From: Endomicrobiales bacterium
GTDB taxonomy: Bacteria > Elusimicrobiota > Endomicrobiia > Endomicrobiales > JAFGIL01
Direction of reading: 5' to 3'
Length of the DNA stretch: 64,000 bases
Assembly: GCA_016929635.1 (NCBI GenBank)
Contig: JAFGIL010000039.1
Span: 3,251-67,250, forward strand
Positions 6,303 to 55,293 of the stretch are shown piece after piece; the first letter of the stretch is position 1, and each line of letters begins with the position of its first letter. Both the position numbers and the translations under genes were made by a program. A model generated the notes under the pieces. The model was not told the origin of the DNA. It saw only the letters and a list, made by a program, of their open reading frames with translations, and made no database searches.

Positions 6303-6420
6303 TTCAAAAATTAAAATTAAAAATGTAAAATTACGGTATCCCTCCTTGGCGGGATTATTTAAATAAGAAACCGCAGGCGACACATTAACTTTGATTTTTG
6401 CATTTTGATTTTTGAATTTT
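6301..6420. repeat. Long imperfect hairpin built from A-rich/T-rich heptamer words, with a central GC mini-hairpin
   Basis: The left arm aattcaaaaattaaaattaaaaatgtaaaatta is approximately the reverse complement of the right arm ttaactttgatttttgcattttgatttttgaatt. The centre carries atccc...gggat. It lies between the carB2 stop and the pyrG SD. Confidence 0.55.
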
Positions 6421-6432
6421 ATAAGAGGTATT

Positions 6433-8010: not shown

Positions 8011-8015
8011 AAAGA

Positions 8016-8070
8016 GGGACAGACACCATTTTTTATGTGTAAAAAATGGTGTCTGTCCCCTTTTTTCTTT
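8016..8070. terminator. Bidirectional intrinsic terminator between convergent pyrG and the V-ATPase operon
   Basis: Perfect 19-bp stem GGGACAGACACCATTTTTT (8016..8034) / AAAAAATGGTGTCTGTCCC (8041..8059) with a 6-nt loop. T-rich tracts follow the hairpin in both reading directions. Confidence 0.8.
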
Positions 8071-17321: not shown

Positions 17322-17365
17322 AGACCGTTCCCGGAACGGGCCTAGGCCCGTTCCGGGAACGGTCT
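17322..17365. repeat. 44-bp perfect palindrome, same family as 14344..14385
   Basis: agaccgttcccggaacgggc-ctag-gcccgttccgggaacggtct. It shares the blocks cgttcccg / aacggg / ctag / cccgtt / cgggaacg with the 14344 copy. It lies between the metF stop and the ntpE start. Confidence 0.8.
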
Positions 17366-22702: not shown

Positions 22703-22773
22703 CTCCGGGACCAGGATTCGAACCTAGACAAAGGGATCCAAATTCCCTTGTGCTACCATTACACCATCCCGGA
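22703..22773 (-). tRNA. tRNA-Gln (anticodon UUG); CCA not encoded
   Basis: The reverse complement folds as a cloverleaf: acceptor tccggga/tcccgga, anticodon stem aggga/tccct with loop aTTTGga, and T arm ctagg-ttcgaat-cctgg. Confidence 0.8.
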
Positions 22774-36000: not shown

Positions 36001-39000
36001 ACGTAAGATAAAAACCTTCATCCAATAACTCAACGGCAAATTCGGCAACCCTTTGGGTCCCTATGCCGGCAAGGGCATAACCAATAACATAAGATAAGTC
36101 TTTGCTCGGGATTCCGATTGATAAATTCCTATGGAACAAATCTATTATAGGCCCTACTGCTTTTTCATCATTTATTTCTCCCAATAATCGAACGGCAAAA
36201 ATCTGCACGACGATGGCTTCATCTTCATTCACTCTCTCAATAATGACATCAACCGCTTTCGGATATTTCATTTTTACTAATGATTCCATGGCTTCGTTTC
36301 TAACAAACGGATCTGAATCATTTCTCAACCTGTCTAAAAGAATCTCATATGCTTCATCTGTTTCCATGCCAGCCATTGATTTTAGAGTTAGATAACGTAT
36401 ACTTGCATCATCTTTACTTTCAATATATCTGCTTAATATAAATTTATGTATCGCGGTGTCTTTCTTATCCTGTATTCTTCCTATGGCTCTTACCGTTCGC
36501 TGGATAACTTCGCTATCCTTTTCTTCCTTCACTATTTCGCCGAATACGTCAAGGGCTTCCTTATAATTATTTTCTCCCAACCAATCAACAGCCAACATTC
36601 TGGCTTCTTTTTCCTTATTATGCGTTTGTCTCAGCCATTCGATGATAACTGGAACCGCAGGTCTGCCTAATTCAAAAAGGTCGCGAAGTATTTTTAAGGG
36701 ATATCTGCTTGCTATTAATTTCTCAGATAAATTTTGCAGGCGTTTCTCCAATTTCTCGTCTTTTAATTCCTGAATGCGCCTTCTTCTCCATGCCATGAAC
36801 TCATACCAGCTTATCAAAGCAGTAATTACAGGAATAGAAACTGCTATTGCTATCAGTACCCAAACACCCGATGCAAATCCGCTAAAGACTAAAATCATCC
36901 CTATGCCGGCTCCTAAAAATACTGGCAATATGCGGTTAATCAAATATGCCGGGAACTCAATTTTTAAGGTACTTTTTGATTTATCTGGATGGATTAAATG
37001 ATATGCTTCGAATCCTATAATGCCTTGTGCATAAAGAAATGCTTTACCCAATCTCGGGTATTCTGAAAGGATTGCATGTACGAAAGGATTAACATGAATT
37101 GTATTTTTACTTGCTTCCGGAACTTCAAAGAAACCTGTTTTTTCTCTTGAAACGAATTTTATGCCCTCTATGCCTTTTATTAATGTTTCCTTTCCTTCAG
37201 GGCTTGCTCTCATTCCAAGAGCCCGAGTTATCCATACTACTACGTTACTCCTGCCCATAAACCATACCGGCCATAATAAAAGGGCTGCGGTTAATAATAT
37301 GACAAGAGGTAAAGAAGCGGCAGAAGCCATCGATATTTCCTGTGTTGCAAAATATCCACCTTCTCTTTCCTTAACGGAAACAATTCCGTCATTGCCCGGC
37401 CCGTCAAACCAGTAAAGTATCTTGTAATCCCCCGTTCTTTCATCATGAACACCTGCTCTTACTGTATATTTGAATGTTCCGGTTTCAAGCGGCGTAAAGG
37501 TAATCCCATACTGCCATACTTCGCGGCCTTCGATGCTGCTTATCTGTCTTAAAGGTGTCATCTTATGAGCCCGCCATTCTCCCGTGAAATTAGACCACAG
37601 CTCCACGGTTGCAGCGCGCGGCGATAAATCATGAATTCCTAAATCAACCGTTACGGTTACTTCTCCCCCCTGCTCCACATTGGTTATTACAGAACGGCCC
37701 GGCTGCATATTTTCTAGAGAATCAATTTTCCCGGCTTTGTATACCGGCAGGTATAAATGATTGTAATAATCCTTAACCATTCTTACCGCAGACATTTCGC
37801 CTTCGCTTGATTTAAACGCATTCCAAGAGACATCTCTCCATGCGTCTGCATCGTTATAATAAATATCTGATATCTTCCTCAGCATGTCCATTAGTGCTTC
37901 CCTGTTGTCTTGGGCCATCATAAAACCGTTCCCATTGCCTGTTTCAGGATCAAACTCTTTAATATGCTCAAGAGGCGCTCCGTCCTGAGAGTTAGCTGAA
38001 GGCACCCCGTTTATCGAAGCCATCTGGAAGCTTGTACCTGATGCTTCTTCCCTGAGCCTCGGTATATGTAATATGAAATCTCCTCCGGCAAACAACATAC
38101 GGTTAACGGATAAATCGCCTTCGTCATATCCGGGAATATATACTATTTTTCCGGGATACTTTTCCTGTAACGATTTTATTGATTTAATCATCCACAATCC
38201 GTAATCTCCATAGGGATTTCCTGCAACCACAAGCTGCATGCCAAGCCCGCCTTCCTCTTTATCCTTTAACATAAGATCTACAATCCCATCATCACTTAAT
38301 ATCATCCACAACCTTTTGTACTCCACCATCCTTCTGGTAAACAAAGCAACCGGTTTATCTTCGTCAAGTTCCACGCCGGTGAGCTCTTTTACTCTTCCAA
38401 TCATATCTCCTTTTAATCTCTTTTTGACTTCAGCCAGCTTTGCTTTACTCCTCACCTTTTTCAAATCAGGATGCCTCCAGAATCCTATGTGAGACCCGTT
38501 TGTTACTGAATGAATGACGTGAGAAAACTCCGGGAACATGTCGCGAGAAACTTCTTCGTGTTTTTCGCTAACCCCATAAATCATACCATGATCACCCTGC
38601 ATCAGGTTCATAGCTCCCTGGGTTAGCTGCATCCTGCCGTCTCTTACAAATGCTCCCCTGTACTTATCAGGTATTCCTGTCCGGTTCCACCAGCCTTCTT
38701 CATAGCTTCTTAATGCTGCTTTTACAGGGGTATGCGTGGCAAATACATATCGTGTATCTTTGAAATGCTCATCATCCATAGCAAAAGGCGCTGTAAATGA
38801 GGTAGCTGCTTCATTCATATGTATTACTGTAGGTTGAATTTGTAATGCTTTTAAAACCTCCACGGAACCCTTACCGAGAAGCAGCTCCTGCCTGAATCTA
38901 TCCCAAGGCCAATCCGGGTACAATTCATAGTTGATACTCGGACAATCAAGATAATATACGGTTGAAGCACCTTTTTCTCCTTTTATTACCTGTTTCCATA

Positions 39001-42000
39001 CTTTTACCTTTATTTTTTCACCAGTTATATCTAACTCCACTTCTAACGGAACTTCTTCGCCTCTTTCATCACGTGCCATTACCTGTTCTATTCCATCTAC
39101 CTTGCTGTAATCTGATTTATAGAAACCCCTGGTATATGTACCATTTTCCTGTTCTACCGGATGCCTTCCTCCCTGATATAAAAGTGTCATAAATATCATG
39201 TTCGAATCAGCAACGTCTGATGCGGCATAAGCTGTATCAGCTGCCAGCTTCCCGAGCCCGCCGGCAAAAACCGTATTTTGTATGGCTATTTCTGAGGTTA
39301 CATATACAATCGGTTTCTGCTTTAGTTCATTAGGTATGCCTGCGATCAACCTGTTTTTTATAGAGTTGTATAGAGGATTAATTATTACATTAAAAGTCAT
39401 ACCTACCAAACCACCTACAAAGTTTATCACAGGCACTACCGGCAACAGGATTATATTCACTGCATAATGCGGGACTACTGTGAGGGATTCAAAGAATGTC
39501 AGGTCCATTTTCAAATTTATGATTCCTAATAAAATCATGTATATAAATGAACCTATCCATAAACCAGGCGAGATTCCTGCTAAACCTGCACTTACCAATG
39601 TAGCTACACTTACTATGGGCAGAGCTATGCTTAATCCGTATATTACTAATGTTACAAGCCCAAGCCACCCGGCATACAAAACTGATAATTTTTCCCCTTC
39701 ACGGGCATGGCCTTGTATAAACTCCCTAAAATTCCATATCTTCGGAGCTTCATGAACGCCTGCAATGCTGAACGAAACAATGCCAACCACTGCTTTGAAC
39801 AATGCATAAACCCACAAATTCAATCTTGCAGGCGGTTGTTCTATATCAACATCTGTATTTCGTTGCACCCATTGCCAGAATTTTGAATTTAATACAATTT
39901 CTTCGGCTTGGTACTTTGTATCAGTCTGAATCCCGTATCCAGCAACACGTGATTCTTCTGAAGTAATAATAGTGACTTTAAGCCCTATCTTTTTTCCTTC
40001 ATCTAAACCCTGCAGAACATATGAATTCCACATCGATTTAATATACGATTGAAAACCCTGTACATTTCCTCTTTTTGAATTGACAATGACTTCAATGGTC
40101 CCCCTGGGATATCTGGACGTCCTGGCCCATTTTACATCATATACCTTTACAAACATTCTTCTGGCTAAATCCTTAATTACCGCTGTAGCTTTTTTAAGAA
40201 CAAGTGCTTTTTCTTCCGGGCCGAAATCTTTTATTTCTTCAGTTCTTTTTGAAACAGGGCGCGCTTGAGGTGTTCTATCAGATAACTCGCCGGTTTTTTC
40301 TAAATATTTAATTACTCCATTAAAAGTAATGTCATCCCTTATAGAGCTGAGCAGATATCCTGCAGGCCAGTCTTCCTTATCCAGAGAGCCGTCTTCTAAA
40401 AGCTTTACATAGAACGGATGCTCTTCCCATTCCCACTCGATACCTTCAAGATCAATCCCATGCCTTTCAACAATTATGCCATACTTCTTCTCCTGAGCGT
40501 ACTTTGTCAAACCATCTGTTTTTATATCTACCAGACTAGGGCTTGAGGCTAAACCATCACGTCTAAGCAGGATATTGAATGGCTCTGAAACAACATCCTC
40601 CATTCTTGTCTCTTCCCTGAAATACTCAAAAACTGCAGACACAAAAAGAGGGGTCTTGCCTGAACCAAAAGTATCTACAAACTTTACCCTTTTCCTTCCT
40701 GAAGCAAGAACCCCTGTGTCCAGAATCTGCCTGTAGAGCCTGCTCGCCTGTTCAAAAGCCTCCAGGTCGCTATCAAACAATCTTTTGGCCCGTGCATTAA
40801 ATTCTTTTTGAAACGCAGCAAAGTCATCTTCCCCAATATCTTCCTTAACCGATAAATATACACCATGCATTTTAGAGTATATCTCTTGTTCATTTTTAAA
40901 CGGATAAACTAATCCGGCCCTTTTCGGTCCGTCTCTGATCTCCTGCATATAAACATCGGTTTCAAATAAATAGCCTGCATCTCTGGCTATATAAACAGCA
41001 AACACTTCATCAGAACCTTCATGTATTATATTATCAACAACTGCTGCTGCTTGCCTTGATTTTTCAACCGTTCCATCTAAATCCGTAAAATCATCCATAG
41101 AGGCAACAAGTGAAAAGCAATCTCTAAACCTTTCCGGGGAAACACCCTTCCTGTCCAGATAATCTTCTACAAACCCATCAATAATGCTGCTAAGGATTGT
41201 CTTACCACCAAAAATCTCTCCCATAATCTCCTGAACTATTCCGACTTCCAGTCTTTCTTGTTCAGTTATGTCTCCGGCTCTTACTTCGGCCAGTTTCCTG
41301 CGAAATCTTTTTCTCATTTCTGTTCTGTTTATTGCATTCCTTCTGCCTTTTGATATCTCAGCAGCTAATCCCGTATAAGCATCTTCAAGCTCTTTATGAT
41401 TCATATTCGCCGTTACAGGAACATCCCACGGTTCTGAAGGGAAACATTCCTTTCTTATTACTTCAAGCATAAAATACAGTTTTCCAAATCCCCTTAATAC
41501 AACATCTGCAACACTAGGCAATAAATCCAATGTCTCCGTTCCTGTGTACAACTCGAGAAATCCCCGCGCTCCTGCAATCGAAGTCCTTGACCAATGGCTG
41601 AAGTGACTCAAAAATTCATCCATATTTAAAACTTCGCCTATTGCCACTATATTTGCAAACTCAAAATTTATTCTATCTATTGCAACAAGCAGATCATTAA
41701 CACTCTGCCGAATTAACTCCATATCAGCGGCTTTGCCCCTGCTACTCTCTGCCAATATTCGGTTTATGGTTTCTTCAACGACAGATGTTTCCTTCTCAAT
41801 ATAAGAGATTAACTCGTTTAATCCATTCCTTAAATCGCTTTCTTCCCATGCCCTGCCGTAATACTGCGTAAACCACAGCAAAAACCACTGGCCGGCAAGC
41901 CTTTCTGCAAGCTTAATATTCTCCGGGTAGTACTCGGCAAGTTTTCTTTGCATCTCTAATTCATGGAGGAACTCAATAAAATGATGGAAATTATCAGTGG

Positions 42001-45000
42001 TTCTTGACTGGGAAAGCTGCCCCGGGTTTACTCTCAATTCTTTCAAGAGATATTCATCAAACAATCTTCTGTTTGATGACCCTTCAATGTTTATCGCCAT
42101 GTATTCGTCTGCTTCATGCTGTCCGTTTAATTTTGCAAATTGAAGGTTACGATGTTCTGTATCCATTCTTGTATCTTTATATCTCTTGTTCCATAGCTCC
42201 GGAGAACCGATATTTTTTAACCGATCAATAAACTCTGTATTCTCTAAAATCTCAACTCTTTGCTCTGAAACTTTTCTTGTAACAGTTGCAATGCCGCCAT
42301 TTTGCGCTGTGCCCATAAGATTTTCTGTTTCGCTGAATTTGACCTCAACTTCACTTATCGGGCATGCAGCTTCACCTTCAAACACTTCCATTGCGCCCTT
42401 TTGTAAAGCCTCTTCAAAAGAAGCCAATTCCGCTGTCGTATCTATTAGCCCATATTCCATAATCGCAATAGCCGCATTATATATGAATCCGCGGTGAGTT
42501 TTATCGTATTTAGACAAAGCTTCTGCAAACTCTTCAACTGTGCCGACATCTCTTCTAATGTCTCTTAACTCGTAAAACAGCTGCGGAGAGAATATATGTA
42601 AAAAATACAGTATATCTGTATCACCGGAAATAGAAAATGTAAACTCCGCTACTTTTAACGCCATATTCCATGCCAATGCTACTGGCTCTGCTTTTGGTGT
42701 TGAGGTACCGAGATCATTTTTTGATTCTTCTTTATCTAGTAATATCCCCAGAAGCTCTGAAGTCTCCCTTGGGCCGGAGACCCATGCACAATAAACTCCG
42801 GTTTTAAACACATCCCGTGCAGCGCTACCTCTGTGCATCGAACCATCAAAGTATATTGCACTCTTCCTGCTAAATCCATTATACCTGAGCGTTCTTAAAA
42901 TTGTATCTGCCTTATTAGTCAGGCTAATCTGAATATAATCATGCATCGGGGATATGAGGGGCATTGCATGATAAATTTCCACCATTGCAGACATTGCCAG
43001 TTCAAGCTCATCTTCTGATAAATCATAGTGCTGGAGCATCTCTTCTCTTTGAGAGGACATAAAGCTGCTGACTTCTTCGAGAAAATCATCAGGATCAGTT
43101 CCCGGACGCTCTCTTTCAAGTGCTTCCTGATTCAGATATATTCTGCCTTCATAACCCATTCTATCGTCTCTTCTAAAGAATTGCCCGTATTCTGATTCCA
43201 ATACTGCCTGAATTATATCCTGCTTAAGTGCCCCAAATAAAAACTCATTAGTATCCACCCGCATTATTGGTATAGTTCTTTCTTCTATCTCGCTTAACTC
43301 GCCCAATTGAGTGACCCTGTATACTTTTAAGCCTGATTCTGCATGCAAAGAAAACAATGAACGAAATTCTTCTTTATCTTTAATATATTTAATAAATTTA
43401 TCCAGATATACATATATATACGAGGCCCGAGGAGTATCTGTTTCAAATGCTGCTGTTGTTACTATCTCAACTTTTATCCCCTGTCTCATTAGTTCAAGCA
43501 TTAGTTCAAAGTTGGGATTATCCTTACGCATATACATAAATTCATAATCGTAACCACCCACCAAAGTCCCGTCCAAATCAAAAAATGCTACTTTAACACC
43601 TCTTGCTTTTGCCGCCGCAACATTTAAAAAGTTATAATTTCTTTGCCTTTCATCTTTTGATACTAAGCCTTCCCTTATCGATTTCACCCCCAATGCCATT
43701 GGATTAAAATGTTTATCAGTTCTACCGATTTTTATTAATTCACGATTGAGGGATATCAAATCTTTCAGCTCGGAATCATTCATATCGCTTCTTGGTTTAA
43801 ATGGAACCTGACGCAGGTAAAAAGCAATATTAAATACATACTCTTTTAAAGCATATGTTTCTGCATATTCGGAAAGTTTTTGGATTACTGCATTATCTAT
43901 ACGCTGGTCCTGGAAAATATTAATAAGCGCCATTACTTCATCCACGTTCCACGTCCCGGGGGTTGTTAGTAATATATTGAAAATTCCTTCATGTATTGCG
44001 TATCTTTCATTTACTGTTTTTAAAAAATCTAATACCTGCTGGCCATGTTTATCCTTAACCTGCCTCCACTTCTCTTCCAATTCAGTTTGCGATGTGCCAA
44101 AAACCTGTATCTCAATAATCCTCGCTAACTCCTCTTCTCCGATTTCCTCCGGATCAAAAATATCTAGTAAATCTTCAATAGATTTTCTTAATTCAGGCCC
44201 AAAAATTCTCGGCGACTCACCCCTGTTTAGTTTATATTTATAGTCAACGTATAAATTACGTATCTTAGTCTGTAATTCTACTTCTCCTAAAATATGTGCT
44301 AAAAATGCTAATCTTTTTAATGATTTAAGCCAATCCTCAACCGGTTTGTCTTTATTTGATAACTTGAAACCATTAGTATAGTTTCTTTTATAATGAGCTA
44401 TTACATTATTTATAATCTCATCTCTGCTCATCTGTTGAATTGACTCATTCAGGATAGTTAAATCCCCATAATAACCTGCAAATGGATCAATATACGGTTT
44501 TTTTGAAACCCCGATATCTATTGTTAGTTCTGGAATCCCCCTGCCTGACACGGTTACATTCGCACCTTTTTCCCCAATTGTTACTTCAAAACCAAATAAA
44601 CGCAATTGATTTGCAAACTCCTTTGCCAGCTCCACGCGTAATTCATTCATCAATACTTTAGTTAATTCGACATCTTCTAATCTTAAACAAATCCTTGTAT
44701 CAAGATCACTAATATAATCCCAATCAATCTGATCATCTGAATTTATATCAGTATATGCGCTCCCGAATACCTCAATAAAAAATCTTCCCTTGAAATTATA
44801 TCCTTCCAGCAACTTGTTAACGGATGTCTGCAATATTTCAACCACCCTTACATCCCCATCCTGAGATTCTTTAACCGGCAACATATAAGCTTCATTAATT
44901 GAGACTGTTTCGATATACCCTATTGGAGTGCCATCAAGGGAAGTCTCTATCCGTTTTGCCCTGACATGATATGTATCAACCGAACGGATAGCAGGCGGTG

Positions 45001-48000
45001 CTATATCAAGAAGTTCTTTTTTTGTGGCTTTAGGCCTTTCAATTCCCGGTAAAGCCGGAATATAAACAAAACCGGCATCGGGTGAATCATCATCAATAAT
45101 TCTGAAGTCTGCATCAATATGTGTGGAGATTGGATTAAAACAAGGTAGAATGACTAAATCCTGCTCAATACTTAAATCTGCAGGCACTTGCGCTAACTCA
45201 ACTAACACAGGAGGGCCTCTAACATCCTTGCTATCTTCTAACCATTTCAGCATATTTGCTTTTATATCATCACTAACAACGCCTGCAATCCAGTAAAATA
45301 AATCAGGATAATTATTATAAAGCGCTTCGTAGATTTCCGGATTATACGGATCATTCTCTACCATTTCTAAGAATTTTTTGACATCTCTGCCCCTCTCACC
45401 TTTTTTCATAAGAGATTCTGGTGTTATGCTTAAAACCATGCGGATCGGCTCTTCACCGGTGAGGATATTTTTAAGAAATCTTCTGCTTTTTGACGAGTCA
45501 CTATCAAAAAATAATCTTGTAAATTCCCTTTTCATCGTACGGTTGGAAGGGTCATTCAGCGTTTCTATAAATTTAATAACTTTGCCATATTTTAAGCCAT
45601 ACTCAGAGTGTTCGATTAATTCCTTTGCTGTATTTGTAGTACTTACAACATAGTTTTTTATTTCTATAAAATATAACTGGCCGTCCTTCCTTGCCACAAT
45701 ATCTATTTCCGCTGTAACCATAGATAATCCCAGGTATATTATTTCAAAACCGGCTCCTTCAAGGGCTTCTGCGTGTTTAAGCTCCCCCAATTCTCCGAAT
45801 ATACTTGTACTTCTTTCATAAACAACGCTCAACCCTGATTCTATCCTGAATATCTTATTTTCCATGCCAGGAACATTTACAAATTTTTCTATAAGGCTAA
45901 AACTTTCTTCGCTTAACACATCAGAATGATAGATATTTCTCGACGCCTTTAATAATTTCAGAATTAATGCATATTGTCTATTTTCAAGTATTTTCCTAAA
46001 CCAGTCAGCTTTCGCCATTTTTAACAAGAATAATAACAGTCTAACCGATGATGTTTTTTCCGGTATGTCTATTAATTTTTCCAACGTCTCCAGTTCTTCT
46101 ATATCTCCTGACAAAATAGCAGCAGCGAATCTTGCTTCTTGGTCTTTTTTAACTAATCCGCTTTCTCTTAATAGATCAAAAATCCGATCCAGGATTTCAT
46201 ATGCTGTTTCCAGTTTTGTAGATGATAGTTTTGTCCCATCCAAATTTTCTATTATTGATTTTTTATAAGGTCCTTCAGGTATAGCATGTAAATCCAAAAA
46301 TTCTCTCAATTTTTCTTCCATATTTGGATTAAGATTTCTTCGGAATATTATTCTACACTGCCTAACCTGCTCTTTAGAAAGTCCTAATTTATGTACAATT
46401 CTCATAAAATCTACGGTTTTCTGTTTAAAACTAGACAACAGAGCTTGACTTTTTTGTGCTTCAGAAAAGATTATAGGAGAATCTGATAGGCTGGATTCCC
46501 TCTCAATTAGCGTAATAAAACTTGATACTAAAGCCGCTCTTCTTTCAACTTCTGCAATGGTTTTTGAATTTTTCAAAATATATCCTATCTCCTCTTTATA
46601 TTTAACCTCAATTCCTAGCTCTGCTAATTTTTGTCTAATTTTATGTTCATTGCTTGTAGGCAATGTTGAAGCAACTTTCATCCACTTGGGGAGTTTGCCA
46701 ATTGAAACCAGATACAAATATAATGAATTCCATATAAAATGCGCTAATGTGCTTGCTATGTAAGATATTAAAGGCGAAAGCAGGGGTGATATTGGCAGGG
46801 TAATATACGAAACTAAAATATAAACTGAGGTAAATATAGTAGCAGGTATAAAAATCAATAAATCTCCAGCTGTTGGAGGTTCTTTCTCAACTATCCATCT
46901 GACAATTATATGTATTGCTGAAAAAACTATTATGCTTGCTGCCCAGGATATTAAATAACTGTATGCGTTCGCTCCCAATAAAGAGAAAATGCCTTGTATT
47001 ATTAAACCTCTGAGCAAATACTCTTCCCAGAAAGGCGCTGCCAGAATAGTTGCAATATGAGCTTTTGTGCCTTCCCCGAGCCATCTCTTTGCTATCGGGT
47101 CAACCACCGAACCGGGTTTGGAAGTGATACGAGCAATTAAATCAGCCAGCCTGCTGCCAGTCCCTGGAATGGAATCTGATATATCATCAAGACCGGTAGC
47201 CTGATATATGTCTGTCTTTTGTTCTGTTTCGGGATCAAACTGGTTTATGTCTCCGGTTTCGATGCTGTAAATAAAAGTTTCCGGGTTCTGGAGATCGCTG
47301 CAGGTAACCGTAATTAATATTGAATCATCCCCTTTTTCTTCCAGTCCTATATTTAAGCCTGAGCCCTTAAAAGTCACATCCAATATCTCCTGAACTTTTT
47401 CTATACCTCCTTTTTTGACTTCGGCCCCTAACTTTTTTACGTTCTCTAAAACCTCTTTATCAAGAATTGTTTTGGTATAGACCCTGCCCGCTAAAACCTT
47501 TTCTCCGGGAGATGACTCGTCGGTATGCATTAATCTTGTTAACGTTTCAAGCGCCAGCATGTCAACAGGTGCTGGCCCGGAGATATTAGACAAAATCCTG
47601 CTTTGCTGCTGAATCAAATCAGAATATACTGATTCGGCAAATGTTGTATCCTCCGTTACATTTGGAGTGATTACAATATATGGAACACCTTTTTCTTTAA
47701 ATATCCCCTTTAAACCTGATGTATGGAAACCACCGGTAATAAGCACAACCACATTCTCGTAATCAGTAACTGGTAATCGGTCATCAGTTTGTATTTGTTG
47801 ACTGATTACTGATGACTGATGACCGATTACTTTGCAGTTTGCAAACAGGCAGTCATTTCTTTTCAAGTTTACCGCATAGTAATCATTTAAAAGTTGCAAA
47901 TATGCTGAGATTCCGGAAAGTTTGCCGTTACCAACGTAACGCGTCCATAATAGCTCAAATTTTGCGAAGTTTTTATTTATATATTCATAATCTTCGGCTG

Positions 48001-49171
48001 ATATTTTATATGACAAATAATCCCCAAGATAACGCGTAAATTCAATAAGAAACAATATCTCGCGCTCGCTTTCTTTTTGCGCCAGGCGCAACCTGATCTC
48101 ATCCAATAATCTCTGTTCCTCTTTAATAAGCTCAAGAGGATTGATTCTTTGATTTAAATCAAGATTTGCAAAAAACGTCTTAAGATTCGGGAATTTATCT
48201 AATACCGAAGGTTTTTTATCTGCTATCCTGGAAAGATATATATAAAGCTCATTTGCTTTCGAAAAATTCGCAGTCCTTTCAATTAATAAGCTGTAAGTGT
48301 TATAAGGAAGCTTGCTCTTTAAAAAAATAATGAATTCCTTCATCTCCCTTGCAACAGCTTTATAATCGACTCTCTTCGATGTTTCAATCGAATCCGTAAA
48401 ATCAGACAGATTTTTGAAAGAACCAAGATCCACACCCAGCTTTTCAGCTTTTCTAATAAGGTAGTCATAATATTTTTCAGGTTTTAATTTTCCGGCTTTA
48501 AACTTCTTAACTACTTTATTCAGTTTTTTATTACTTCTGTTATAGTACCTGTCTTCCAGCCCGGTTAAATCGTCTTTGATGTCTTCTAACTTTTCTTTTA
48601 TCTGCGGCTGCTCCCTAACAATCCTGCTCAGCCTTAACATATTTTCCGTATGCAATTTTTTATTTTCCACTCCGATTAAAAGGTCATTTCTCTCTGACAC
48701 GGCAGCATAATGCTCGGCACCTGTAAGTTTACCGCTGTTTAGAAGCGCATCCAGAATTTCATTTCTAAGTTTTTTATCCCTGATACGGGTAAGCCAGGAA
48801 GTATTGAGCGCACCGCAGCTCCCTTCTATGTACACGTTCTTCAATGAATACTTTTTGTCCAGCACTTCCAATATTTTAGAAATATTTCTTTGCACCTCGG
48901 GGTGGCAATGCAGGTCTTGGATGTTTACTACTAGCGTAGAGCGTTTAGCGGATAGTGGATAGTTATCCTCCCCTATACGCTCTACGCTCTCCGCTATCCG
49001 CTGTTCTGTGATTCTCCCATATGAGGAAGGAAGCACAAAGCTGTCAAAAACATCTTTGTATCCGTTTATAGCACGCCTTTTTTCGACAACCGCATGTAAA
49101 GGCTGGCTTATTATAAACGTAAACGTGAAACAACTTATGGTTAATAGTGCGATGATTTTTTTATAGTTCAT
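27035..49171 (-). CDS. Giant (7,378 aa) signal-anchored polytopic multidomain protein of unknown function
   Basis: A single open frame of 22,137 nt. Every other frame across the interval is broken, and the longest competing ORF is 139 aa. Several independent conserved motifs fall in the same frame (see the sub-features). Confidence 0.9.
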   Translation of the reverse strand: MNYKKIIALLTISCFTFTFIISQPLHAVVEKRRAINGYKDVFDSFVLPSSYGRITEQRIAESVERIGEDNYPLSAKRSTLVVNIQDLHCHPEVQRNISKILEVLDKKYSLKNVYIEGSCGALNTSWLTRIRDKKLRNEILDALLNSGKLTGAEHYAAVSERNDLLIGVENKKLHTENMLRLSRIVREQPQIKEKLEDIKDDLTGLEDRYYNRSNKKLNKVVKKFKAGKLKPEKYYDYLIRKAEKLGVDLGSFKNLSDFTDSIETSKRVDYKAVAREMKEFIIFLKSKLPYNTYSLLIERTANFSKANELYIYLSRIADKKPSVLDKFPNLKTFFANLDLNQRINPLELIKEEQRLLDEIRLRLAQKESEREILFLIEFTRYLGDYLSYKISAEDYEYINKNFAKFELLWTRYVGNGKLSGISAYLQLLNDYYAVNLKRNDCLFANCKVIGHQSSVISQQIQTDDRLPVTDYENVVVLITGGFHTSGLKGIFKEKGVPYIVITPNVTEDTTFAESVYSDLIQQQSRILSNISGPAPVDMLALETLTRLMHTDESSPGEKVLAGRVYTKTILDKEVLENVKKLGAEVKKGGIEKVQEILDVTFKGSGLNIGLEEKGDDSILITVTCSDLQNPETFIYSIETGDINQFDPETEQKTDIYQATGLDDISDSIPGTGSRLADLIARITSKPGSVVDPIAKRWLGEGTKAHIATILAAPFWEEYLLRGLIIQGIFSLLGANAYSYLISWAASIIVFSAIHIIVRWIVEKEPPTAGDLLIFIPATIFTSVYILVSYITLPISPLLSPLISYIASTLAHFIWNSLYLYLVSIGKLPKWMKVASTLPTSNEHKIRQKLAELGIEVKYKEEIGYILKNSKTIAEVERRAALVSSFITLIERESSLSDSPIIFSEAQKSQALLSSFKQKTVDFMRIVHKLGLSKEQVRQCRIIFRRNLNPNMEEKLREFLDLHAIPEGPYKKSIIENLDGTKLSSTKLETAYEILDRIFDLLRESGLVKKDQEARFAAAILSGDIEELETLEKLIDIPEKTSSVRLLLFLLKMAKADWFRKILENRQYALILKLLKASRNIYHSDVLSEESFSLIEKFVNVPGMENKIFRIESGLSVVYERSTSIFGELGELKHAEALEGAGFEIIYLGLSMVTAEIDIVARKDGQLYFIEIKNYVVSTTNTAKELIEHSEYGLKYGKVIKFIETLNDPSNRTMKREFTRLFFDSDSSKSRRFLKNILTGEEPIRMVLSITPESLMKKGERGRDVKKFLEMVENDPYNPEIYEALYNNYPDLFYWIAGVVSDDIKANMLKWLEDSKDVRGPPVLVELAQVPADLSIEQDLVILPCFNPISTHIDADFRIIDDDSPDAGFVYIPALPGIERPKATKKELLDIAPPAIRSVDTYHVRAKRIETSLDGTPIGYIETVSINEAYMLPVKESQDGDVRVVEILQTSVNKLLEGYNFKGRFFIEVFGSAYTDINSDDQIDWDYISDLDTRICLRLEDVELTKVLMNELRVELAKEFANQLRLFGFEVTIGEKGANVTVSGRGIPELTIDIGVSKKPYIDPFAGYYGDLTILNESIQQMSRDEIINNVIAHYKRNYTNGFKLSNKDKPVEDWLKSLKRLAFLAHILGEVELQTKIRNLYVDYKYKLNRGESPRIFGPELRKSIEDLLDIFDPEEIGEEELARIIEIQVFGTSQTELEEKWRQVKDKHGQQVLDFLKTVNERYAIHEGIFNILLTTPGTWNVDEVMALINIFQDQRIDNAVIQKLSEYAETYALKEYVFNIAFYLRQVPFKPRSDMNDSELKDLISLNRELIKIGRTDKHFNPMALGVKSIREGLVSKDERQRNYNFLNVAAAKARGVKVAFFDLDGTLVGGYDYEFMYMRKDNPNFELMLELMRQGIKVEIVTTAAFETDTPRASYIYVYLDKFIKYIKDKEEFRSLFSLHAESGLKVYRVTQLGELSEIEERTIPIMRVDTNEFLFGALKQDIIQAVLESEYGQFFRRDDRMGYEGRIYLNQEALERERPGTDPDDFLEEVSSFMSSQREEMLQHYDLSEDELELAMSAMVEIYHAMPLISPMHDYIQISLTNKADTILRTLRYNGFSRKSAIYFDGSMHRGSAARDVFKTGVYCAWVSGPRETSELLGILLDKEESKNDLGTSTPKAEPVALAWNMALKVAEFTFSISGDTDILYFLHIFSPQLFYELRDIRRDVGTVEEFAEALSKYDKTHRGFIYNAAIAIMEYGLIDTTAELASFEEALQKGAMEVFEGEAACPISEVEVKFSETENLMGTAQNGGIATVTRKVSEQRVEILENTEFIDRLKNIGSPELWNKRYKDTRMDTEHRNLQFAKLNGQHEADEYMAINIEGSSNRRLFDEYLLKELRVNPGQLSQSRTTDNFHHFIEFLHELEMQRKLAEYYPENIKLAERLAGQWFLLWFTQYYGRAWEESDLRNGLNELISYIEKETSVVEETINRILAESSRGKAADMELIRQSVNDLLVAIDRINFEFANIVAIGEVLNMDEFLSHFSHWSRTSIAGARGFLELYTGTETLDLLPSVADVVLRGFGKLYFMLEVIRKECFPSEPWDVPVTANMNHKELEDAYTGLAAEISKGRRNAINRTEMRKRFRRKLAEVRAGDITEQERLEVGIVQEIMGEIFGGKTILSSIIDGFVEDYLDRKGVSPERFRDCFSLVASMDDFTDLDGTVEKSRQAAAVVDNIIHEGSDEVFAVYIARDAGYLFETDVYMQEIRDGPKRAGLVYPFKNEQEIYSKMHGVYLSVKEDIGEDDFAAFQKEFNARAKRLFDSDLEAFEQASRLYRQILDTGVLASGRKRVKFVDTFGSGKTPLFVSAVFEYFREETRMEDVVSEPFNILLRRDGLASSPSLVDIKTDGLTKYAQEKKYGIIVERHGIDLEGIEWEWEEHPFYVKLLEDGSLDKEDWPAGYLLSSIRDDITFNGVIKYLEKTGELSDRTPQARPVSKRTEEIKDFGPEEKALVLKKATAVIKDLARRMFVKVYDVKWARTSRYPRGTIEVIVNSKRGNVQGFQSYIKSMWNSYVLQGLDEGKKIGLKVTIITSEESRVAGYGIQTDTKYQAEEIVLNSKFWQWVQRNTDVDIEQPPARLNLWVYALFKAVVGIVSFSIAGVHEAPKIWNFREFIQGHAREGEKLSVLYAGWLGLVTLVIYGLSIALPIVSVATLVSAGLAGISPGLWIGSFIYMILLGIINLKMDLTFFESLTVVPHYAVNIILLPVVPVINFVGGLVGMTFNVIINPLYNSIKNRLIAGIPNELKQKPIVYVTSEIAIQNTVFAGGLGKLAADTAYAASDVADSNMIFMTLLYQGGRHPVEQENGTYTRGFYKSDYSKVDGIEQVMARDERGEEVPLEVELDITGEKIKVKVWKQVIKGEKGASTVYYLDCPSINYELYPDWPWDRFRQELLLGKGSVEVLKALQIQPTVIHMNEAATSFTAPFAMDDEHFKDTRYVFATHTPVKAALRSYEEGWWNRTGIPDKYRGAFVRDGRMQLTQGAMNLMQGDHGMIYGVSEKHEEVSRDMFPEFSHVIHSVTNGSHIGFWRHPDLKKVRSKAKLAEVKKRLKGDMIGRVKELTGVELDEDKPVALFTRRMVEYKRLWMILSDDGIVDLMLKDKEEGGLGMQLVVAGNPYGDYGLWMIKSIKSLQEKYPGKIVYIPGYDEGDLSVNRMLFAGGDFILHIPRLREEASGTSFQMASINGVPSANSQDGAPLEHIKEFDPETGNGNGFMMAQDNREALMDMLRKISDIYYNDADAWRDVSWNAFKSSEGEMSAVRMVKDYYNHLYLPVYKAGKIDSLENMQPGRSVITNVEQGGEVTVTVDLGIHDLSPRAATVELWSNFTGEWRAHKMTPLRQISSIEGREVWQYGITFTPLETGTFKYTVRAGVHDERTGDYKILYWFDGPGNDGIVSVKEREGGYFATQEISMASAASLPLVILLTAALLLWPVWFMGRSNVVVWITRALGMRASPEGKETLIKGIEGIKFVSREKTGFFEVPEASKNTIHVNPFVHAILSEYPRLGKAFLYAQGIIGFEAYHLIHPDKSKSTLKIEFPAYLINRILPVFLGAGIGMILVFSGFASGVWVLIAIAVSIPVITALISWYEFMAWRRRRIQELKDEKLEKRLQNLSEKLIASRYPLKILRDLFELGRPAVPVIIEWLRQTHNKEKEARMLAVDWLGENNYKEALDVFGEIVKEEKDSEVIQRTVRAIGRIQDKKDTAIHKFILSRYIESKDDASIRYLTLKSMAGMETDEAYEILLDRLRNDSDPFVRNEAMESLVKMKYPKAVDVIIERVNEDEAIVVQIFAVRLLGEINDEKAVGPIIDLFHRNLSIGIPSKDLSYVIGYALAGIGTQRVAEFAVELLDEGFYLTLYGILDFNRPMFPELIAWLKNNSGKKDNERSVLIGHMREADIRRETDFIIELLENDQSGDVRAKAAAALGKVRKSKVFKALANSLLNDPISEVRVSAAEALGEQGSPKAVDYLVERLRNDEDYKVRTVSAKSLGLIRSPRAVSILIEKLSTDESPDVRLASADALGEIRTTEAVGPLLDRVRYDEDNTVKMYAVGALERIGDQAAVPYLAEILESVPLDNANLRARIGTVSGNITLSTVNRIINAPANRGVREIIQTVRSDVLRRFLRLQSIVLRAEGQARENWYEFTRSLLRNSPSLKFKPLPRGVKFPEEPEPVDADLLPAYEDVNSLFKTIDAAEGVERMGTYVTTWGRKVLYKRQDGTYFSLKIQKEDEDVEALARERNNLEFLHALKDRERAAGIKDGLKGEWARPAGNDGSIYRVRIPESETVTKTGEQISLAQADGYYTVLVLEETRETLMYLDGSAGMDSSKADMELVRELLGEDIDSTQFENANRMIINDMMKLLEYGIVHPDTIYLYHEELMLRGEERARTGANTAANRLDEASWNWMLFGRMSAPLKSARFSNYRLAGFADVEKLTTISAISEGRYNRRYFSTVGRERPHDRTDTGLVGADPKKIAYYYFGAYLLSLVLTRLSWMDTEEPFVYLGAEDRRQKLAVSLKDTFNQAFVDFSGSEISGLDSVIGDEGWQLMADQLVYFLSGQHAEDVASQDEEAMERLHSMFPGSEVEILSLETLEELDPKREYFRKKSPRNGLMIGNSYNSQDRDLGAINANNPATELWKALCIYSAFAVTENGMKEKKRSDRLIRLWKPLFESLGFWIGYIGVVYGVPLILGFLGVDASIVLSIKDVLMSKTFRLVLYAGLNTIFGLLHKRLFRYNRDLVEWLPDEKPASIPARFGVGLIGALTIHTPVLLHIFGINISSLLPILLPQFLTIPGLFVSIFVLHLVWNNVIARLFGLFALAGSKAGKSVSTNVDRRALLEIFPHQDYLEYLYLYGFGSQLIVNNEDLQVQGLKAKKVFKELRAQWDYISPAANRDKKISLGKVDSKGAIEHFKEIIDYIERNLYILKALIEQEPDNVEEIIEGMEDVSNFADGIKLLLEHKARGSVDVNDVVSKISGLVFSKYYADRYDITVRTGLRAEGELDVSQDKLAYLLLALFVPFRNQNGLEFYINTYNEDGNLVIQIDTNNVFSPTRFKQIGADFIDAVLEELGGALAVTKRGKKNYTIKVTFPLKTETEPVANSMAESLQTLINKINHDYIRHAVEVAQEVSRGERERAIIYCDTTEQAIGTFVAANKFRAVRAVIADLTPTITYDKRNTTVLSRAHNDTNILIIDRSKGTAEERAQIEKEWLETAYEGIEEPRHQERLDMFMEIPEPVPPSPTAKKQAGKTRIAIGCDHGAIELMEALQEKLVEELGLSLKERGIEIVLQPVGVDRDTIASKKAAGENINYPEYGQKVARIVLSGESDLGIVQCGTGFGICMSLEKFAGMRGVVTNNVDAAVVAREKFDANVIALGGRIFTEDDKSVHIDEVLEIIKAWLETEPSPEAAANIEDIETAEKIAAMQSEMSNLPASARGSKIAAVISGIGAVLVPVILWLVGNWIGVPWIMYLIRALSISAGLVLISGSLAMMNQSGYIKDAINISDSKRNNDAISRKQEELNLEIREVIEELNKKYEKQGYVFRDFEDRENPPGEKIDGIAGIDPNNLVDEKRRKVIYIDALAFGLLPEYLKKHIIEKHEAVHLRQFADILPPVARKGSGTDFDELVKYGAKISKKYPWFNPVYVLAKPNSDGKQAYFVISSDSEEARRVYDSPEKYQVSVLFETAFENREGELVGYQGRALFHPCTIEGEDRFICYHGIGLTPSFVHNPGRNFAVGPVYSGFMARDEAEKRSDMSKKLTSADSAVIIPEVDSIVGLEHVWSRNTGLVGVEDLGDFFIPGEKNNTDWVDPVFVSYKPQPLEDIITLEDVLEMPAEMQERVIRSLLEKKGVIKKGMFRKKIDKKTLFDLYIDFLLKNVTSQVALWYEKGYTHGMISRQNISINGHLRDLATAKPVNFDIVDMDLMSLDIVLRMITDLAGYAGMYDRAELIDSIKDKAIHLLRDSFTAGFWDKARNHILSIIAVDDPSWNKEFLIIEREWVLLDIAQEFVDAGILERVGRDDDCIVYRVKQEYHKLSREQFDWNILRDHMAMPSNMVEVANGNVSTIRDEVNAGDKEKKSGWRAEVAPYTNQVIGSISILPNVIRDIIRRALFAARRTANVNRIARESVEAQMDGFSGLRQQYPYAVNRDTVHIVYDERNLESKQKELAALKEAGVNAHGVGFIPKGYNLRKNGFRKQTGIPNLVVRINDRSVPIDVWKNESTGMILIQRRLVNQEALTLYLLTCQLLYRGIIDDDVNEMLIAGQPKSRASNRQSLPEVIFIDNMGMVPGEALQSFNPVYNEDGSVTLSFDALKVTFPDVDKAEDLLRDAEVIADASGVHENMQGFVRQAKASRRVNLVLERGMSFMQRFRKIWQGFLTNTIQSVTSWEVALVMDMSVDEFGVSNLAERITELRDRDNSMWTPLSTLMLRDIYVEDSPGVLTPEIAEKTAELQAAVTKLKQAKIKVSVPVRVTKEEQLQGQGLNNLITNMLTAGLNGIAYDEVYLDFRAMTAPAQQQAVRTWYQGFSREVLSKLPIKKVYFVLPQGLQDLSEDNAVMIESPRELDRMIRMVKSRAVNMKCVVIPSDYYERALSQAEKGERVTTIGVRTKIMRLITRYEPQNPQECFEQSSKSGEAFFMKRSGELLDVNMDFYPDKFKRLCEISDMCLENEIIDEGLLIEVPEMFAEEGRIRQEFDRLVDRIRHNDDMEEQVNAYAEFRGFLVGIACAMAKARYISDIKFEAPEYESAFLKLLLIEIANLDEGIDINEVLKRVTSVEYEHTLPERLQRQSPHQIIAPYIGNFGDIRTWGDRGRGVLVTDLLNILFTHYQRQEPFIVEEAPQAAIAALQQAINAAG
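29750..30560 (-). other. Giant protein: SelO/YdiU-like or other protein-kinase-fold module (tentative, aa ~6204-6474)
   Basis: YTHGMISRQNISINGHLRDLA aligns position by position to SelO HGVMNTDNMSILGLTIDYG. Upstream, ICYHGIGLTPS...GR......G.MARDEAEK resembles LQLKGaGrTPys..GDGR....ssiREfl.sEA. Confidence 0.3.
31120..31285 (-). other. Giant protein: hydrophobic cluster (2-3 TM helices, aa ~5963-6018)
   Basis: SKIAAVISGIGAVLVPVILWLVGNWIGVPWIMYLIRALSISAGLVLISGSLAMM. Confidence 0.5.
31385..31850 (-). other. Giant protein: RpiB/LacAB-family sugar-phosphate isomerase-like module 2 (aa ~5774-5929)
   Basis: RIAIGCDHGAIELMEAL (IAIGsDHaG.eLKe), YPEYGQKVARIVLSGESDLGIVQCGTGFGICMSLEKFAGMRG, and AREKFDANVIALGGR. 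Confidence 0.7.
31940..32190 (-). other. Giant protein: partial RpiB/LacAB-like module 1 (C-terminal half of the fold only)
   Basis: AIGTFVAANKFRAVRAVIA......VLSRAHNDTNILIIDRS parallels RpiB GiG.SIAANK..GIRAA......a...ReHNdaNVL.lG.R. Confidence 0.4.
33120..33600 (-). other. Giant protein: degenerate CPBP-like membrane domain 2 (aa ~5191-5351)
   Basis: Hydrophobic helices carry IFGLLHKRL (FxxxH) and FVLHLVWNN (HxxxN). The EExxxR position is reduced to FESLGFW. Confidence 0.4.
35360..36650 (-). other. Giant protein: HEAT / PBS-lyase-type repeat array (aa ~4174-4604)
   Basis: The unit D..VR..AA.ALG.i....Av..Li..L.d is repeated at least 8 times, for example DPISEVRVSAAEALGEQGSPKAVDYLVERLRND and SPDVRLASADALGEIRTTEAVGPLLDRVRYD. 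Confidence 0.7.
37370..37700 (-). other. Giant protein: beta-sandwich (E-set/CBM-like) module after the GT35 domain (tentative)
   Basis: GGEVTVTVDLG...ATVELWSNFTGEW...MTP......WQYGITF.PLETGTFKYTVRAG has the alternating beta-strand pattern of carbohydrate-binding or E-set domains. Confidence 0.3.
37740..39315 (-). other. Giant protein: alpha-glucan phosphorylase (GT35, GlgP-type) domain lacking the PLP lysine (aa ~3286-3811)
   Basis: Collinear family motifs are present: SEIA..GGLGKLAAD, IHMNEAATSF, FATHTPV, GVSEKHEEVSRDMF, VTNGSHIGFW, FTRRMVEYKR and EASGTSFQMASING. The last is canonically EASGTSGMKAALNG. Confidence 0.75.
39330..39825 (-). other. Giant protein: hydrophobic cluster (about 5-6 predicted TM helices, aa ~3116-3281)
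   Basis: LNLWVYALFKAVVGIVSFSIAGV ... LVTLVIYGLSIALPIVSVATLVSAGLAGI ... FIYMILLGIINL ... VNIILLPVVPVINFVGGLVGMTF. Confidence 0.5.
42780..43600 (-). other. Giant protein: HAD-superfamily-like hydrolase module (aa ~1860-2130)
   Basis: Motif I is VAFFDLDGTLVGG (D1865-x-D1867). A motif II-like EIVTTAAF follows. The distal AIYFDGSMHRGSAARD is only loosely like motif IV. Confidence 0.45.
44500..44850 (-). other. Giant protein: possible Pol-beta-type nucleotidyltransferase-like module (weak)
   Basis: FIEVFGSAYTDINSDDQIDWDYISDLDTRICL has a G-S ... D-x-D arrangement, but the 17-aa spacer is longer than the usual 9-13. Confidence 0.2.
45645..45800 (-). other. Giant protein: YraN/UPF0102-like PD-(D/E)xK nuclease-fold module (aa ~1125-1175)
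   Basis: GELGELKHAEALEGAGFEIIYLG...AEIDIVARKDGQLYFIEIKNY matches the YraN pattern G.GE..A...L...G..I......GEIDlia......fVEVK. Confidence 0.45.
46690..47090 (-). other. Giant protein: CPBP (CAAX/Abi-type) intramembrane protease-like domain 1 (aa ~695-825)
   Basis: All three family motifs sit in hydrophobic helices: FWEEYLLRG (EExxxR), FSAIHII (FxxxH) and AHFIWN (HxxxN). Confidence 0.6.
47670..48931 (-). other. Giant protein: ChaN / TraB / Tiki / EreA-superfamily-like domain (tentative, aa ~81-500)
   Basis: VVNIQDLHCHPEVQRNISKILEVLDKK..NVYIEG resembles the ChaN N-terminal pattern (vvllGE.Hdnp.hH..q...L....lalE). VVVLITGGFHTSGL resembles the C-terminal vvv.G.gH..G motif. Confidence 0.3.
49091..49171 (-). 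other. Giant protein: N-terminal signal peptide / signal anchor (aa 1-27)
   Basis: MNYKKIIALLTISCFTFTFIISQPLHA has a basic n-region, a hydrophobic core and an A-x-A-like end. Confidence 0.6.
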
Positions 49172-49700
49172 TTTTCTGCAAATAAAAAACCCGATTTATT
49201 AAGGAATAAATCGGGTTTGCATATCTTTTATTCAAAAATGACATAATAATGCTATCTATTGCACCTCGCGGTAAAAGATAAAACAGCAACATAAATAAAG
49301 TAAAAAGCCATAGTTCCTGCTTGTACCTTGATTTTGGTATAACCTCTATATTAAAAAGATCCCGGGAGCAATCGGCGTATTTAATAAAGCCATCTGCTTT
49401 ATTAATCCTGGATGCCTTGAGAATCAAGTTATTCGTATTGGGAACTAAACAAGAATCTTTTTCAGGTTTTACCGGCTTCCTTGAGTGTTTGCCTTTTTCC
49501 TGATTGGGTAAAGAACTCTCTTCCATCATCGAATCCAGCATTTTAACTGCTATATCTGATATGTACTTTGAAAGGAAGAAGCTTGTCCCCAGCGATGACG
49601 GGTTGGAAACAGTATCAACCTGAAAATCAACCGACAGAAGGGTTGAGAAAGGATTAAGTATCAAACAGGAAATAATGACTAATATAAGTTTTTGTTTCAT
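49161..49700 (-). CDS. Hypothetical bitopic membrane protein (179 aa) overlapping the giant ORF start
   Basis: An N-terminal signal sequence (MKQKLILVIISCLILNPFSTLLS) and a C-proximal TM helix (LWLFTLFMLLFYLL). The stop TAA at 49163..49161 overlaps the giant start (AUGAACUAUAA). Confidence 0.6.
   Translation of the reverse strand: MKQKLILVIISCLILNPFSTLLSVDFQVDTVSNPSSLGTSFFLSKYISDIAVKMLDSMMEESSLPNQEKGKHSRKPVKPEKDSCLVPNTNNLILKASRINKADGFIKYADCSRDLFNIEVIPKSRYKQELWLFTLFMLLFYLLPRGAIDSIIMSFLNKRYANPIYSLINRVFYLQKNEL
49176..49218 (-). terminator. Intrinsic-terminator-like hairpin plus U-tract immediately upstream of the giant ORF start, inside the 3' end of the upstream ORF
   Basis: Minus-sense RNA reads AAACCCGAUUUAUU-CCUU-AAUAAAUCGGGUUU, then UUUAUUUG. 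The stem is a perfect 14 bp with a CCCG/CGGG base. The giant ATG is at 49171. Confidence 0.5.
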
Positions 49701-49736
49701 AAACTGGTCTATTATATAGTATTTAATATTATTATA

Positions 49737-49764
49737 ATTATAAACAAAATTTATGAAATTTCAA
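49737..49764 (-). promoter_or_regulatory. Sigma70-like promoter candidate for the small-ORF + giant-ORF unit (TTGAAA-N16-TATAAT)
   Basis: On the minus strand, TTGAAA lies at 49764..49759 and TATAAT at 49742..49737. This is about 37 nt upstream of the ATG at 49700. Confidence 0.35.
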
Positions 49765-55256: not shown

Positions 55257-55284
55257 TTGAAAACAATTTATATTTTGCTATAAT
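55257..55284 (+). promoter_or_regulatory. Sigma70-like promoter (TTGAAA-N16-TATAAT) ending 9 nt before the radical-SAM ATG
   Basis: TTGAAA at 55257..55262 and TATAAT at 55279..55284; the ATG is at 55294. No SD lies between them. Confidence 0.4.
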
Positions 55285-55293
55285 ATAAATACA

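Follow-up and report, generated by a model that had tools for sequence, protein, structure and literature searches.

How is entry into a gene of some 22 kb controlled in a bacterium? Giant bacterial genes are costly and fragile to express, and the control of entry into them is essentially unstudied. Here we examined this question at a locus in a metagenome-assembled genome (MAG) of an Endomicrobiales bacterium (phylum Elusimicrobiota), using a stretch of 64,000 nucleotides (contig JAFGIL010000039.1; 41% G+C) that we refer to as the window. In this stretch an open reading frame (ORF) of 7378 amino acids, the giant ORF, is preceded on the same strand by a small ORF of 179 amino acids, the end of which forms a hairpin followed by a U-tract. 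We found that this hairpin travels with the small ORF across a family of related loci, and the arrangement suggests a probable dependence of giant-gene expression on ribosomes that complete the small gene. A first-pass annotation of this DNA had delimited the two ORFs, their 11-nucleotide overlap, the hairpin and the terminator-like U-tract, and all of these were reproduced in our analysis. The features on which the argument rests are the following.

49737..49764, minus strand: candidate promoter of the sigma-70 type (TTGAAA at 49764..49759, N16, TATAAT at 49742..49737; 11 of 12 consensus matches)
49700 to 49161, minus strand: small ORF of 179 amino acids (from ORF translation), ATG at 49700, TAA at 49163..49161
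49187..49218, minus strand: perfect 14-bp hairpin with a 4-nucleotide loop, within the last 20 codons of the small ORF
49180..49189, minus strand: U-tract UUUUUUAUUU, on the strand coding for both ORFs; the last three stem bases are also its first three U
49161..49179, minus strand: junction GCAGAAAAAUGAACUAUAA, A-rich and without a Shine-Dalgarno (SD) sequence; it holds the giant ATG (49171..49169) and the small-ORF TAA (49163..49161)
27035..49171, minus strand: giant ORF of 7378 amino acids, ATG at 49171, end at 27035; a gene of ~22 kb

The junction between the small and the giant gene

The hairpin reads AAACCCGATTTATT-CCTT-AATAAATCGGGTTT in DNA (49218..49187) and is followed by TTTATTTG; in the transcript it becomes AAACCCGAUUUAUU-CCUU-AAUAAAUCGGGUUU, continuing into UUUAUUUG. 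Near the base of the stem CCCG pairs with CGGG adjoining the U-tract, flanked by three A-U pairs. We calculated a stability of -15.5 kcal/mol for the hairpin alone. For the 91 nucleotides (nt) at 49240..49150, the region for which the first-pass annotation had suggested a fold calculation, the minimum free energy (MFE) was -20.7 kcal/mol with z = -4.2, and 0 of 200 shuffled sequences were as stable. The giant ATG lies 15 nt past the end of the stem and 8 nt past that of the U-tract. An outer UGCA/UGCA pairing extends to 5 nt from it, which matches the distance of about 5 nt originally given for the hairpin. An out-of-frame TAATAA (49201..49196) lies where the loop passes into the 3' arm. This is the anatomy of a canonical intrinsic terminator, namely a stable stem with G+C-rich pairs by the tail and a U-tract immediately 3' on the transcribed strand; if the hairpin terminates transcription, the U-tract would be the expected release zone.

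A strict scan for terminators on both strands of the 64 kb returned three hairpins at or below -15 kcal/mol, and the junction hairpin was the only one within an ORF. The hairpin sequence is unique in the window and among all of the related loci that we fetched, and is therefore not a repeat element; an origin from a repeat or mobile element was ruled out on this ground. When the hairpin region was compared with Rfam 15 no family exceeded its gathering score. The best match was PyrR (28.2 bits against a gathering score of 54), and all of the sub-threshold matches were families that end in a terminator.

The TTGAAA-N16-TATAAT promoter candidate that had been proposed upstream of the small ORF is present, and a second TATAAT abuts it at 49736..49731. 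A consensus scan of the minus strand from 49700 to 49171 found no promoter-like sites. Across the family, 32 of 81 loci had a site with at least 11 of 12 matches upstream of the small ORF, compared with 1 of 81 for the final 150 nt of this ORF and 0 of 81 for the interior of the big ORF, these figures being consensus scans and not mapped start sites. No promoter specific to the big gene is thus detectable, and transcripts of that gene must cross the hairpin. Big genes preceded by a small ORF and those lacking one did not differ clearly in the promoter scores of their upstream regions, and this comparison was not used. The best explanation of the locus, in which we have moderate confidence, is that promoter, small ORF, hairpin with U-tract and giant ORF would form a single transcription unit.

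Translation of the giant ORF presents a separate problem, as its ATG has no SD (anti-SD duplex of -2.2 kcal/mol). The first-pass annotation had set this against a window in which most other genes carry GGAG-type SD sequences. The absence is real, but the contrast was overstated: only 14 of 36 plausible ORFs in the window have a strong SD (anti-SD duplex at or below -6 kcal/mol), and for 17, among them the small ORF and the neighboring pdxA, there is essentially none. A missing SD is ordinary in the window, and it is not conserved: between the U-tract and the big-gene ATG, GGAG or GGAGG is present in the majority of homologues. The combination expected for termination-reinitiation, a stop/start overlap (here the 11 nt of AUGAACUAUAA) with no SD for the downstream gene, was found in the window and not family-wide. 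We also noted a TATAAT at 49716-49711 (minus strand), 10 nt before the ATG of the small ORF, and another ending 9 nt before the ATG of the gene at 55294 on the plus strand, which has no SD (55270-55296). Leaderless or near-leaderless mRNAs are possible for both genes.

Conservation and context of the cassette

The giant protein begins with a hydrophobic helix containing an invariant CF (49100-49171) and continues into a conserved N-terminal domain of ~530 amino acids (47582-49171) with an invariant NIQDLHC and a conserved GGFH motif. Further along, Rce1-like, GT-B-like (glycosyltransferase/phosphorylase-like), HEAT-repeat and RpiB-like stretches were recognized. The N-terminal domain has no relative in Pfam or the PDB. 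An AlphaFold2 (AF2) model of this domain gave a predicted template modeling score (pTM) of 0.70, and its best PDB match, which was not significant, was the erythromycin esterase EreC (E = 0.33); the model hints at an Ere/Tiki/TraB-like superfamily. The domain defines a multi-copy family: 227 matches were found among GTDB species genomes and 386 among JGI metagenomes, a genome often holding several, and many of the ORFs are longer than 1800 amino acids. Two paralogues, P0002 and P0003, are found in the same MAG. Start codons in the homologous loci were assigned by alignment, and the start of the giant ORF is itself backed by alignment of its N-terminus with those of homologues (MNYKKIIALLTISCF against MNFKKIIAVLTTLCF and similar sequences).

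The small protein is annotated only as a hypothetical protein. It consists of an N-terminal hydrophobic helix, an amphipathic helix, a Lys-rich disordered linker, a C-proximal transmembrane (TM) helix (LWLFTLFMLLFYLL), the motif LPRGAIDS and a tail (…NPIYSLINRVFYLQKNEL) that is encoded by the hairpin and the U-tract. A direct search with the small ORF alone returned only itself among 5.8 billion proteins, and a single-protein metagenome scan for close orthologues gave no match. Synteny was more informative. The ORFs located directly 5' of the big-gene homologues form a family, 35 of 49 clustering together by BLASTP, and a hidden Markov model built from these 35 matched the small ORF of the window with E = 9e-12 (against ~320 decoy ORFs from the window). 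This recovery by a profile of syntenic upstream ORFs rules out that the small ORF is spurious. We fetched 164 loci from uncultured Endomicrobia, 148 of which have at least 500 nt of upstream sequence; in 101 of these 148 a diverged homologue of the small ORF lies directly upstream of the big gene.

Members of the small-protein family are 160-220 amino acids in length and share the N-terminal hydrophobic helix with a near-invariant Asn, the amphipathic helix, a Lys/Asn-rich linker, the TM helix and an LPR[SG] motif. Neither the window protein nor 17 homologues had a Pfam or NCBIfam match above cut-off, and a search of 1.84 billion clusters gave only 32 representatives of the family at E ≤ 0.001. 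Helices alone are predicted for the small protein by AF2, in a model of low confidence (mean predicted local distance difference test score, pLDDT, 66; pTM 0.28). From their conserved co-occurrence, the small protein and the ~530-amino-acid domain evidently represent two unannotated families of functional partners. The earlier suggestion that the small protein serves as a partner or chaperone of the giant protein has only this co-occurrence in its favor; the small protein displays no recognizable fold or family. The near-invariant Asn in the N-helix of the small protein (49653-49700) is unusual for a plain signal peptide, as is the invariant Cys-Phe in the N-helix of the big protein. Such conserved odd residues may point to recognition of the two helices or to an interaction between them.

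Presence of the hairpin follows that of the small ORF. Within 110 nt upstream of the big-gene ATG the best hairpin had a median stability of -18.8 kcal/mol in family loci, compared with -8.7 kcal/mol in loci without a small ORF, and hairpins at or below -14 kcal/mol were present at 41 of 46 family loci, at 2 of 28 loci without a small ORF and in 11 of 90 control windows placed inside the two ORFs. We also applied simple criteria for a strict hairpin, requiring a perfect stem of at least 8 bp with at least 3 G-C pairs and at least 6 T in 8 nt. Strict hairpins were found in the 110-nt junction zone of 53 of 89 unique loci, while the remaining 527 kb contained 63 more, making them 45-fold denser at the junction. 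A U-run follows the stem on the sense strand in the homologues as well. The distance from the hairpin to the big-gene ATG has a median of 19 nt, and is 25-35 nt in a subclass with a long N-terminus. A spacer of 110-135 nt in one subclass, which would have left room for a promoter, was rejected, as the real SD and ATG lie 25-35 nt past the hairpin. The first-pass proposal that the giant gene is licensed by translation of the small one survives this comparison, small ORF and hairpin both being present upstream of homologous big genes.

The stem sequences diverge widely between loci. When 23 members of one alignable subclass were aligned with MAFFT, 95.7% of cells paired, compared with at most 60% with slid partners. 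Six stem pairs were changed on both sides (e.g. AU to GC, UA to CG, GC to UA), and the covariation score of the alignment was reached by 0 of 500 shuffles. As only the 5' arm is coding, it is the 3' arm that tracks the other and so keeps the structure. RNAalifold returned no consensus for 19 diverse junctions because their loop lengths shift the register. In loci L098, L099, L105, L112 and L115-L121 we observed a second small hairpin ~1-30 nt past the terminator and before the SD of the big gene, formed for example by TTGCGTT…AACGCAA or by repeats of the CACAAAAAC type. The big proteins of this subclass have ~30 extra N-terminal residues.

In the window, the cassette of promoter, small ORF, hairpin and giant ORF has pdxA and genes for SurA-like peptidyl-prolyl isomerases as its upstream neighbors, and genes for a GNAT acetyltransferase, a TPR protein and a GHMP kinase as its downstream neighbors. 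No pyr genes are present at the locus. A scan of the whole window with Rfam 15 gave a single family above its gathering score, a transfer RNA (tRNA).

22703-22773, minus strand: tRNA gene (Rfam, above gathering score)

Two further structures in the window deserve mention. A bidirectional terminator at 8015-8060 (~-32 kcal/mol, T-runs on both strands) is located between the convergent genes 6412-8010 (plus strand) and 8072-9067 (minus strand) and begins 5 and 11 nt past their stop codons, which shows that this organism uses canonical intrinsic terminators very near stop codons. A perfect 20-bp G+C-rich palindrome at 17322-17365 (AGACCGTTCCCGGAACGGGCC/TAGG…; -43.9 kcal/mol) occupies the 76-nt gap between the minus-strand ORFs 17380-18243 and 16698-17303; its T-run is on the plus strand only, antisense to the flanking genes.

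Translation into the hairpin and its alternatives

For 63 family loci with a strict hairpin we recorded where the small ORF stops, allowing offsets as some stems absorb the U-run. Of these stop codons, 36 lie in the loop, 8 in an arm, 16 beyond the hairpin and 3 upstream of it by at most 12 nt, so that 60 of the 63 are inside or beyond the hairpin. The small ORF of the window belongs to the read-through minority (16/63), the majority being those with a stop in the loop (36/63). The stop/start overlap emphasized in the first-pass annotation is accordingly a feature of this minority architecture; the overlaps of read-through homologues range from +4 (ATGA) to +14 nt, and a translated signature, R/G-V/F-F-Y, recurs among them. 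The nearest relative (52% identity, with only 163 nt of upstream sequence) shows LPRGTID, a loop TAG in AACCCGGCU/AGCCGGGUU, a U-run and, in a spacer of 33 nt, GGAG. In two gene calls, P0002 (same MAG, JW871_00005) and P0039, the small ORF is fused in frame with the big ORF, and the hairpin and U-run are translated (…GLGFFIG… and …SRVFYF…). These fusions are either a genuine third architecture or an artefact of gene calling. Since stops are seen in the loop, in an arm, beyond the hairpin, or are replaced by fusion, the end of the small ORF is thus free to move provided that translation enters the hairpin.

These observations are consistent with the hairpin being an intra-operon attenuator of the intrinsic-terminator type that is suppressed by ribosomes finishing the small ORF, a reading to which we give an even chance. 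Melting of the hairpin by translation of the small ORF would be the most likely mechanism, and we regard it as about equally probable to be right or wrong. Because the small ORF runs into or through the hairpin, a ribosome that trails RNA polymerase to the end of this ORF would cover the 5' arm; the hairpin would then be blocked and the polymerase would enter the 22-kb gene. A polymerase without a trailing ribosome would terminate at about 49180..49185, and in the read-through class the terminated transcripts, having no small-ORF stop, would be non-stop mRNAs. In the window, where the small ORF reads through and the giant AUG has no SD, the same terminating ribosomes would probably start translation of the giant gene, given that the small-ORF stop lies 8 nt past the giant AUG; the A-rich leader is a possible independent ribosome entry site. 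Termination-reinitiation is plausible only for the minority read-through architecture, the window included. We infer termination in vivo, its suppression by translation and reinitiation alike from the anatomy of these loci.

Several points weigh against ribosome-controlled attenuation. No strict hairpin was found in 26 of the 89 unique family loci, some of these being failures of the criterion, and the loci are related paralogues and orthologues, not independent samples. The closeness of stop codon and terminator may be a habit of the genome, as the one other bona fide terminator of the window is also found 5/11 nt past stops. Most homologues keep a good SD, and independent initiation of the big gene is therefore the rule; reinitiation would be at best a local variant. 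In Bacillus subtilis RNA polymerase outruns the ribosomes, and in such a regime a ribosome could not act on the hairpin. In addition, the window derives from a MAG, and a 1-base indel would place the end of the small ORF at the TAATAA (49201..49196) or in an ATGA overlap.

The same terminator anatomy and conservation would fit a constitutive partial terminator that sets the stoichiometry of the two proteins, most transcripts ending after the small gene and a fixed leak giving low expression of the giant gene. No regulatory role would then fall to translation of the small ORF, whose stop would lie in the hairpin merely as a result of genome compaction. In 44 of 63 cases the stop falls within the loop or an arm, so that terminated transcripts would still encode a complete small protein; most homologues have an SD of their own for the big gene, and the other terminator of the window is likewise 5-11 nt from stop codons. 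However, a ribosome at a nearby stop strongly suppresses termination in E. coli, where a stop codon 5 bp upstream lowered the efficiency of a terminator from ~90% to <10%, a terminator placed late in a coding region kept 40% of the efficiency of the reference construct, and uncoupling of translation restored termination (PMC4824070). Independence from translation would need uncoupled transcription, and the 16 of 63 ORFs that read through, that of the window included, would give non-stop mRNAs, which would be costly if produced constitutively. We consider a fixed leak improbable, although it deserves to be taken seriously; if correct, the junction would be an instance of ordinary operon-internal expression tuning. 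It is unlikely that the hairpin acts only after transcription, either as a 3'-end stabilizer of a processed small-gene mRNA or as a structure abutting the ribosome-binding site that ribosomes melt (translational coupling). The conserved sense-strand U-run directly past the stem, a defining feature of intrinsic terminators, would not be needed for either role, and the stem itself covers neither SD nor AUG, even though most loci have 1-20 nt between the end of the hairpin and the SD or ATG, the MFE structure includes a weak outer helix in which CAUUUUU (49240..49234) pairs with the A-rich leader and with AU from the AUG, and overlaps and ATGA-type junctions are typical of coupled pairs.

Long operons often carry leader terminators that are bypassed by specialized NusG paralogues. 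The downstream gene here is 22 kb, and such systems are common for very long operons, so that read-through might be governed by processive antitermination (e.g. by a NusG paralogue of the RfaH/LoaP/UpxY type) with translation of the small ORF being incidental. No recruitment element or dedicated factor turned up in the window, in which no search was aimed at them, and the locking of the small-ORF end onto the hairpin would be left unexplained; we think this explanation very unlikely. The stem is AU-rich (10 of 14 pairs) in a window of 41% G+C, as might be expected of a chance palindrome in AT-rich sequence without function. Set against this are the z-score and shuffling result given above, the presence of only three such hairpins in 64 kb, and the conservation of position and the covariation over dozens of diverged loci, by which a chance origin is effectively refuted.

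Relation to known attenuators and significance

As in translation-coupled attenuators, a terminator stands between the promoter and the big gene with no intervening promoter, and the upstream ORF runs into the hairpin. In rph-pyrE, the position of the rph stop relative to the loop of the pyrE attenuator sets pyrE expression (PMC2784333). The cassette resembles this system in that a full-length upstream gene is co-transcribed with the regulated gene with an intrinsic terminator between them. It also resembles it in the closeness of stop and attenuator loop, which sets read-through in rph-pyrE; in the cassette family the stop is in the loop or beyond in 52 of 63. They differ in that pyrE is a pyrimidine gene and senses UTP (uridine triphosphate) via polymerase pausing, whereas no sensed signal is known for the cassette. 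The cassette genes are also unrelated to rph and pyrE, encoding a small membrane protein and a giant secreted protein, and the module is multi-copy within genomes and known from sequence alone.

In pyrBI, an ORF is translated through the terminator hairpin and ends beside the downstream start, and a closely coupled ribosome blocks termination. The read-through architecture of the window has the same geometry, but the pyrBI leader is a 44-codon peptide without a function of its own, whereas the cassette ORF encodes a conserved family of 160-220-amino-acid proteins. UTP-sensitive pause sites were not identified in the cassette, for which pausing was not analysed. Synthetic tR2 constructs (Li et al. 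2016, PMC4824070) supply a quantitative rule that fits the anatomy of the cassette, but they are an engineered E. coli system and not a natural conserved regulatory module. Termination-reinitiation pairs resemble the window in its 11-nt stop/start overlap and SD-less downstream cistron, whereas most members of the family carry a separate SD and have their stop within the loop of the hairpin.

By analogy, then, the cassette would resemble rph-pyrE and pyrBI in its mode of action. It does not belong among the pyr attenuators, because no pyrimidine gene and no UTP-sensing feature, such as UTP-sensitive pausing, was identified and the downstream gene encodes a giant secreted multidomain protein. 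We found no published description of the cassette or of the two families of proteins. The mechanism itself is textbook knowledge; the novelty lies in the conserved cassette, in its link to a giant-gene family of Endomicrobia and in the rule that the stop lies in the loop.

More tentatively, and with rather low probability in our estimate, the cassette could be a dedicated commitment checkpoint at which polymerase is admitted to the giant gene only with a trailing ribosome, and at which the small protein and the N-helix of the giant protein act together in the membrane. If so, every transcript of the giant gene would start with a coupled ribosome, protecting it against premature termination, and in the read-through class the small membrane partner would be made productively only from transcripts that also carry the giant gene. 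Under ribosome-controlled attenuation more generally, the module offers a concrete, sequence-defined and mutable control point, consisting of a promoter, a 160-220-amino-acid ORF, a terminator with the stop in its loop and a big gene. It recurs in ~100 of the 164 fetched Endomicrobia loci, and genomes and metagenomes together yield ~600 matches to the N-domain family. With this module, ribosome-controlled attenuation would reach past short leader peptides and pyrimidine operons to genes for full-length proteins, in a phylum that has received little study.

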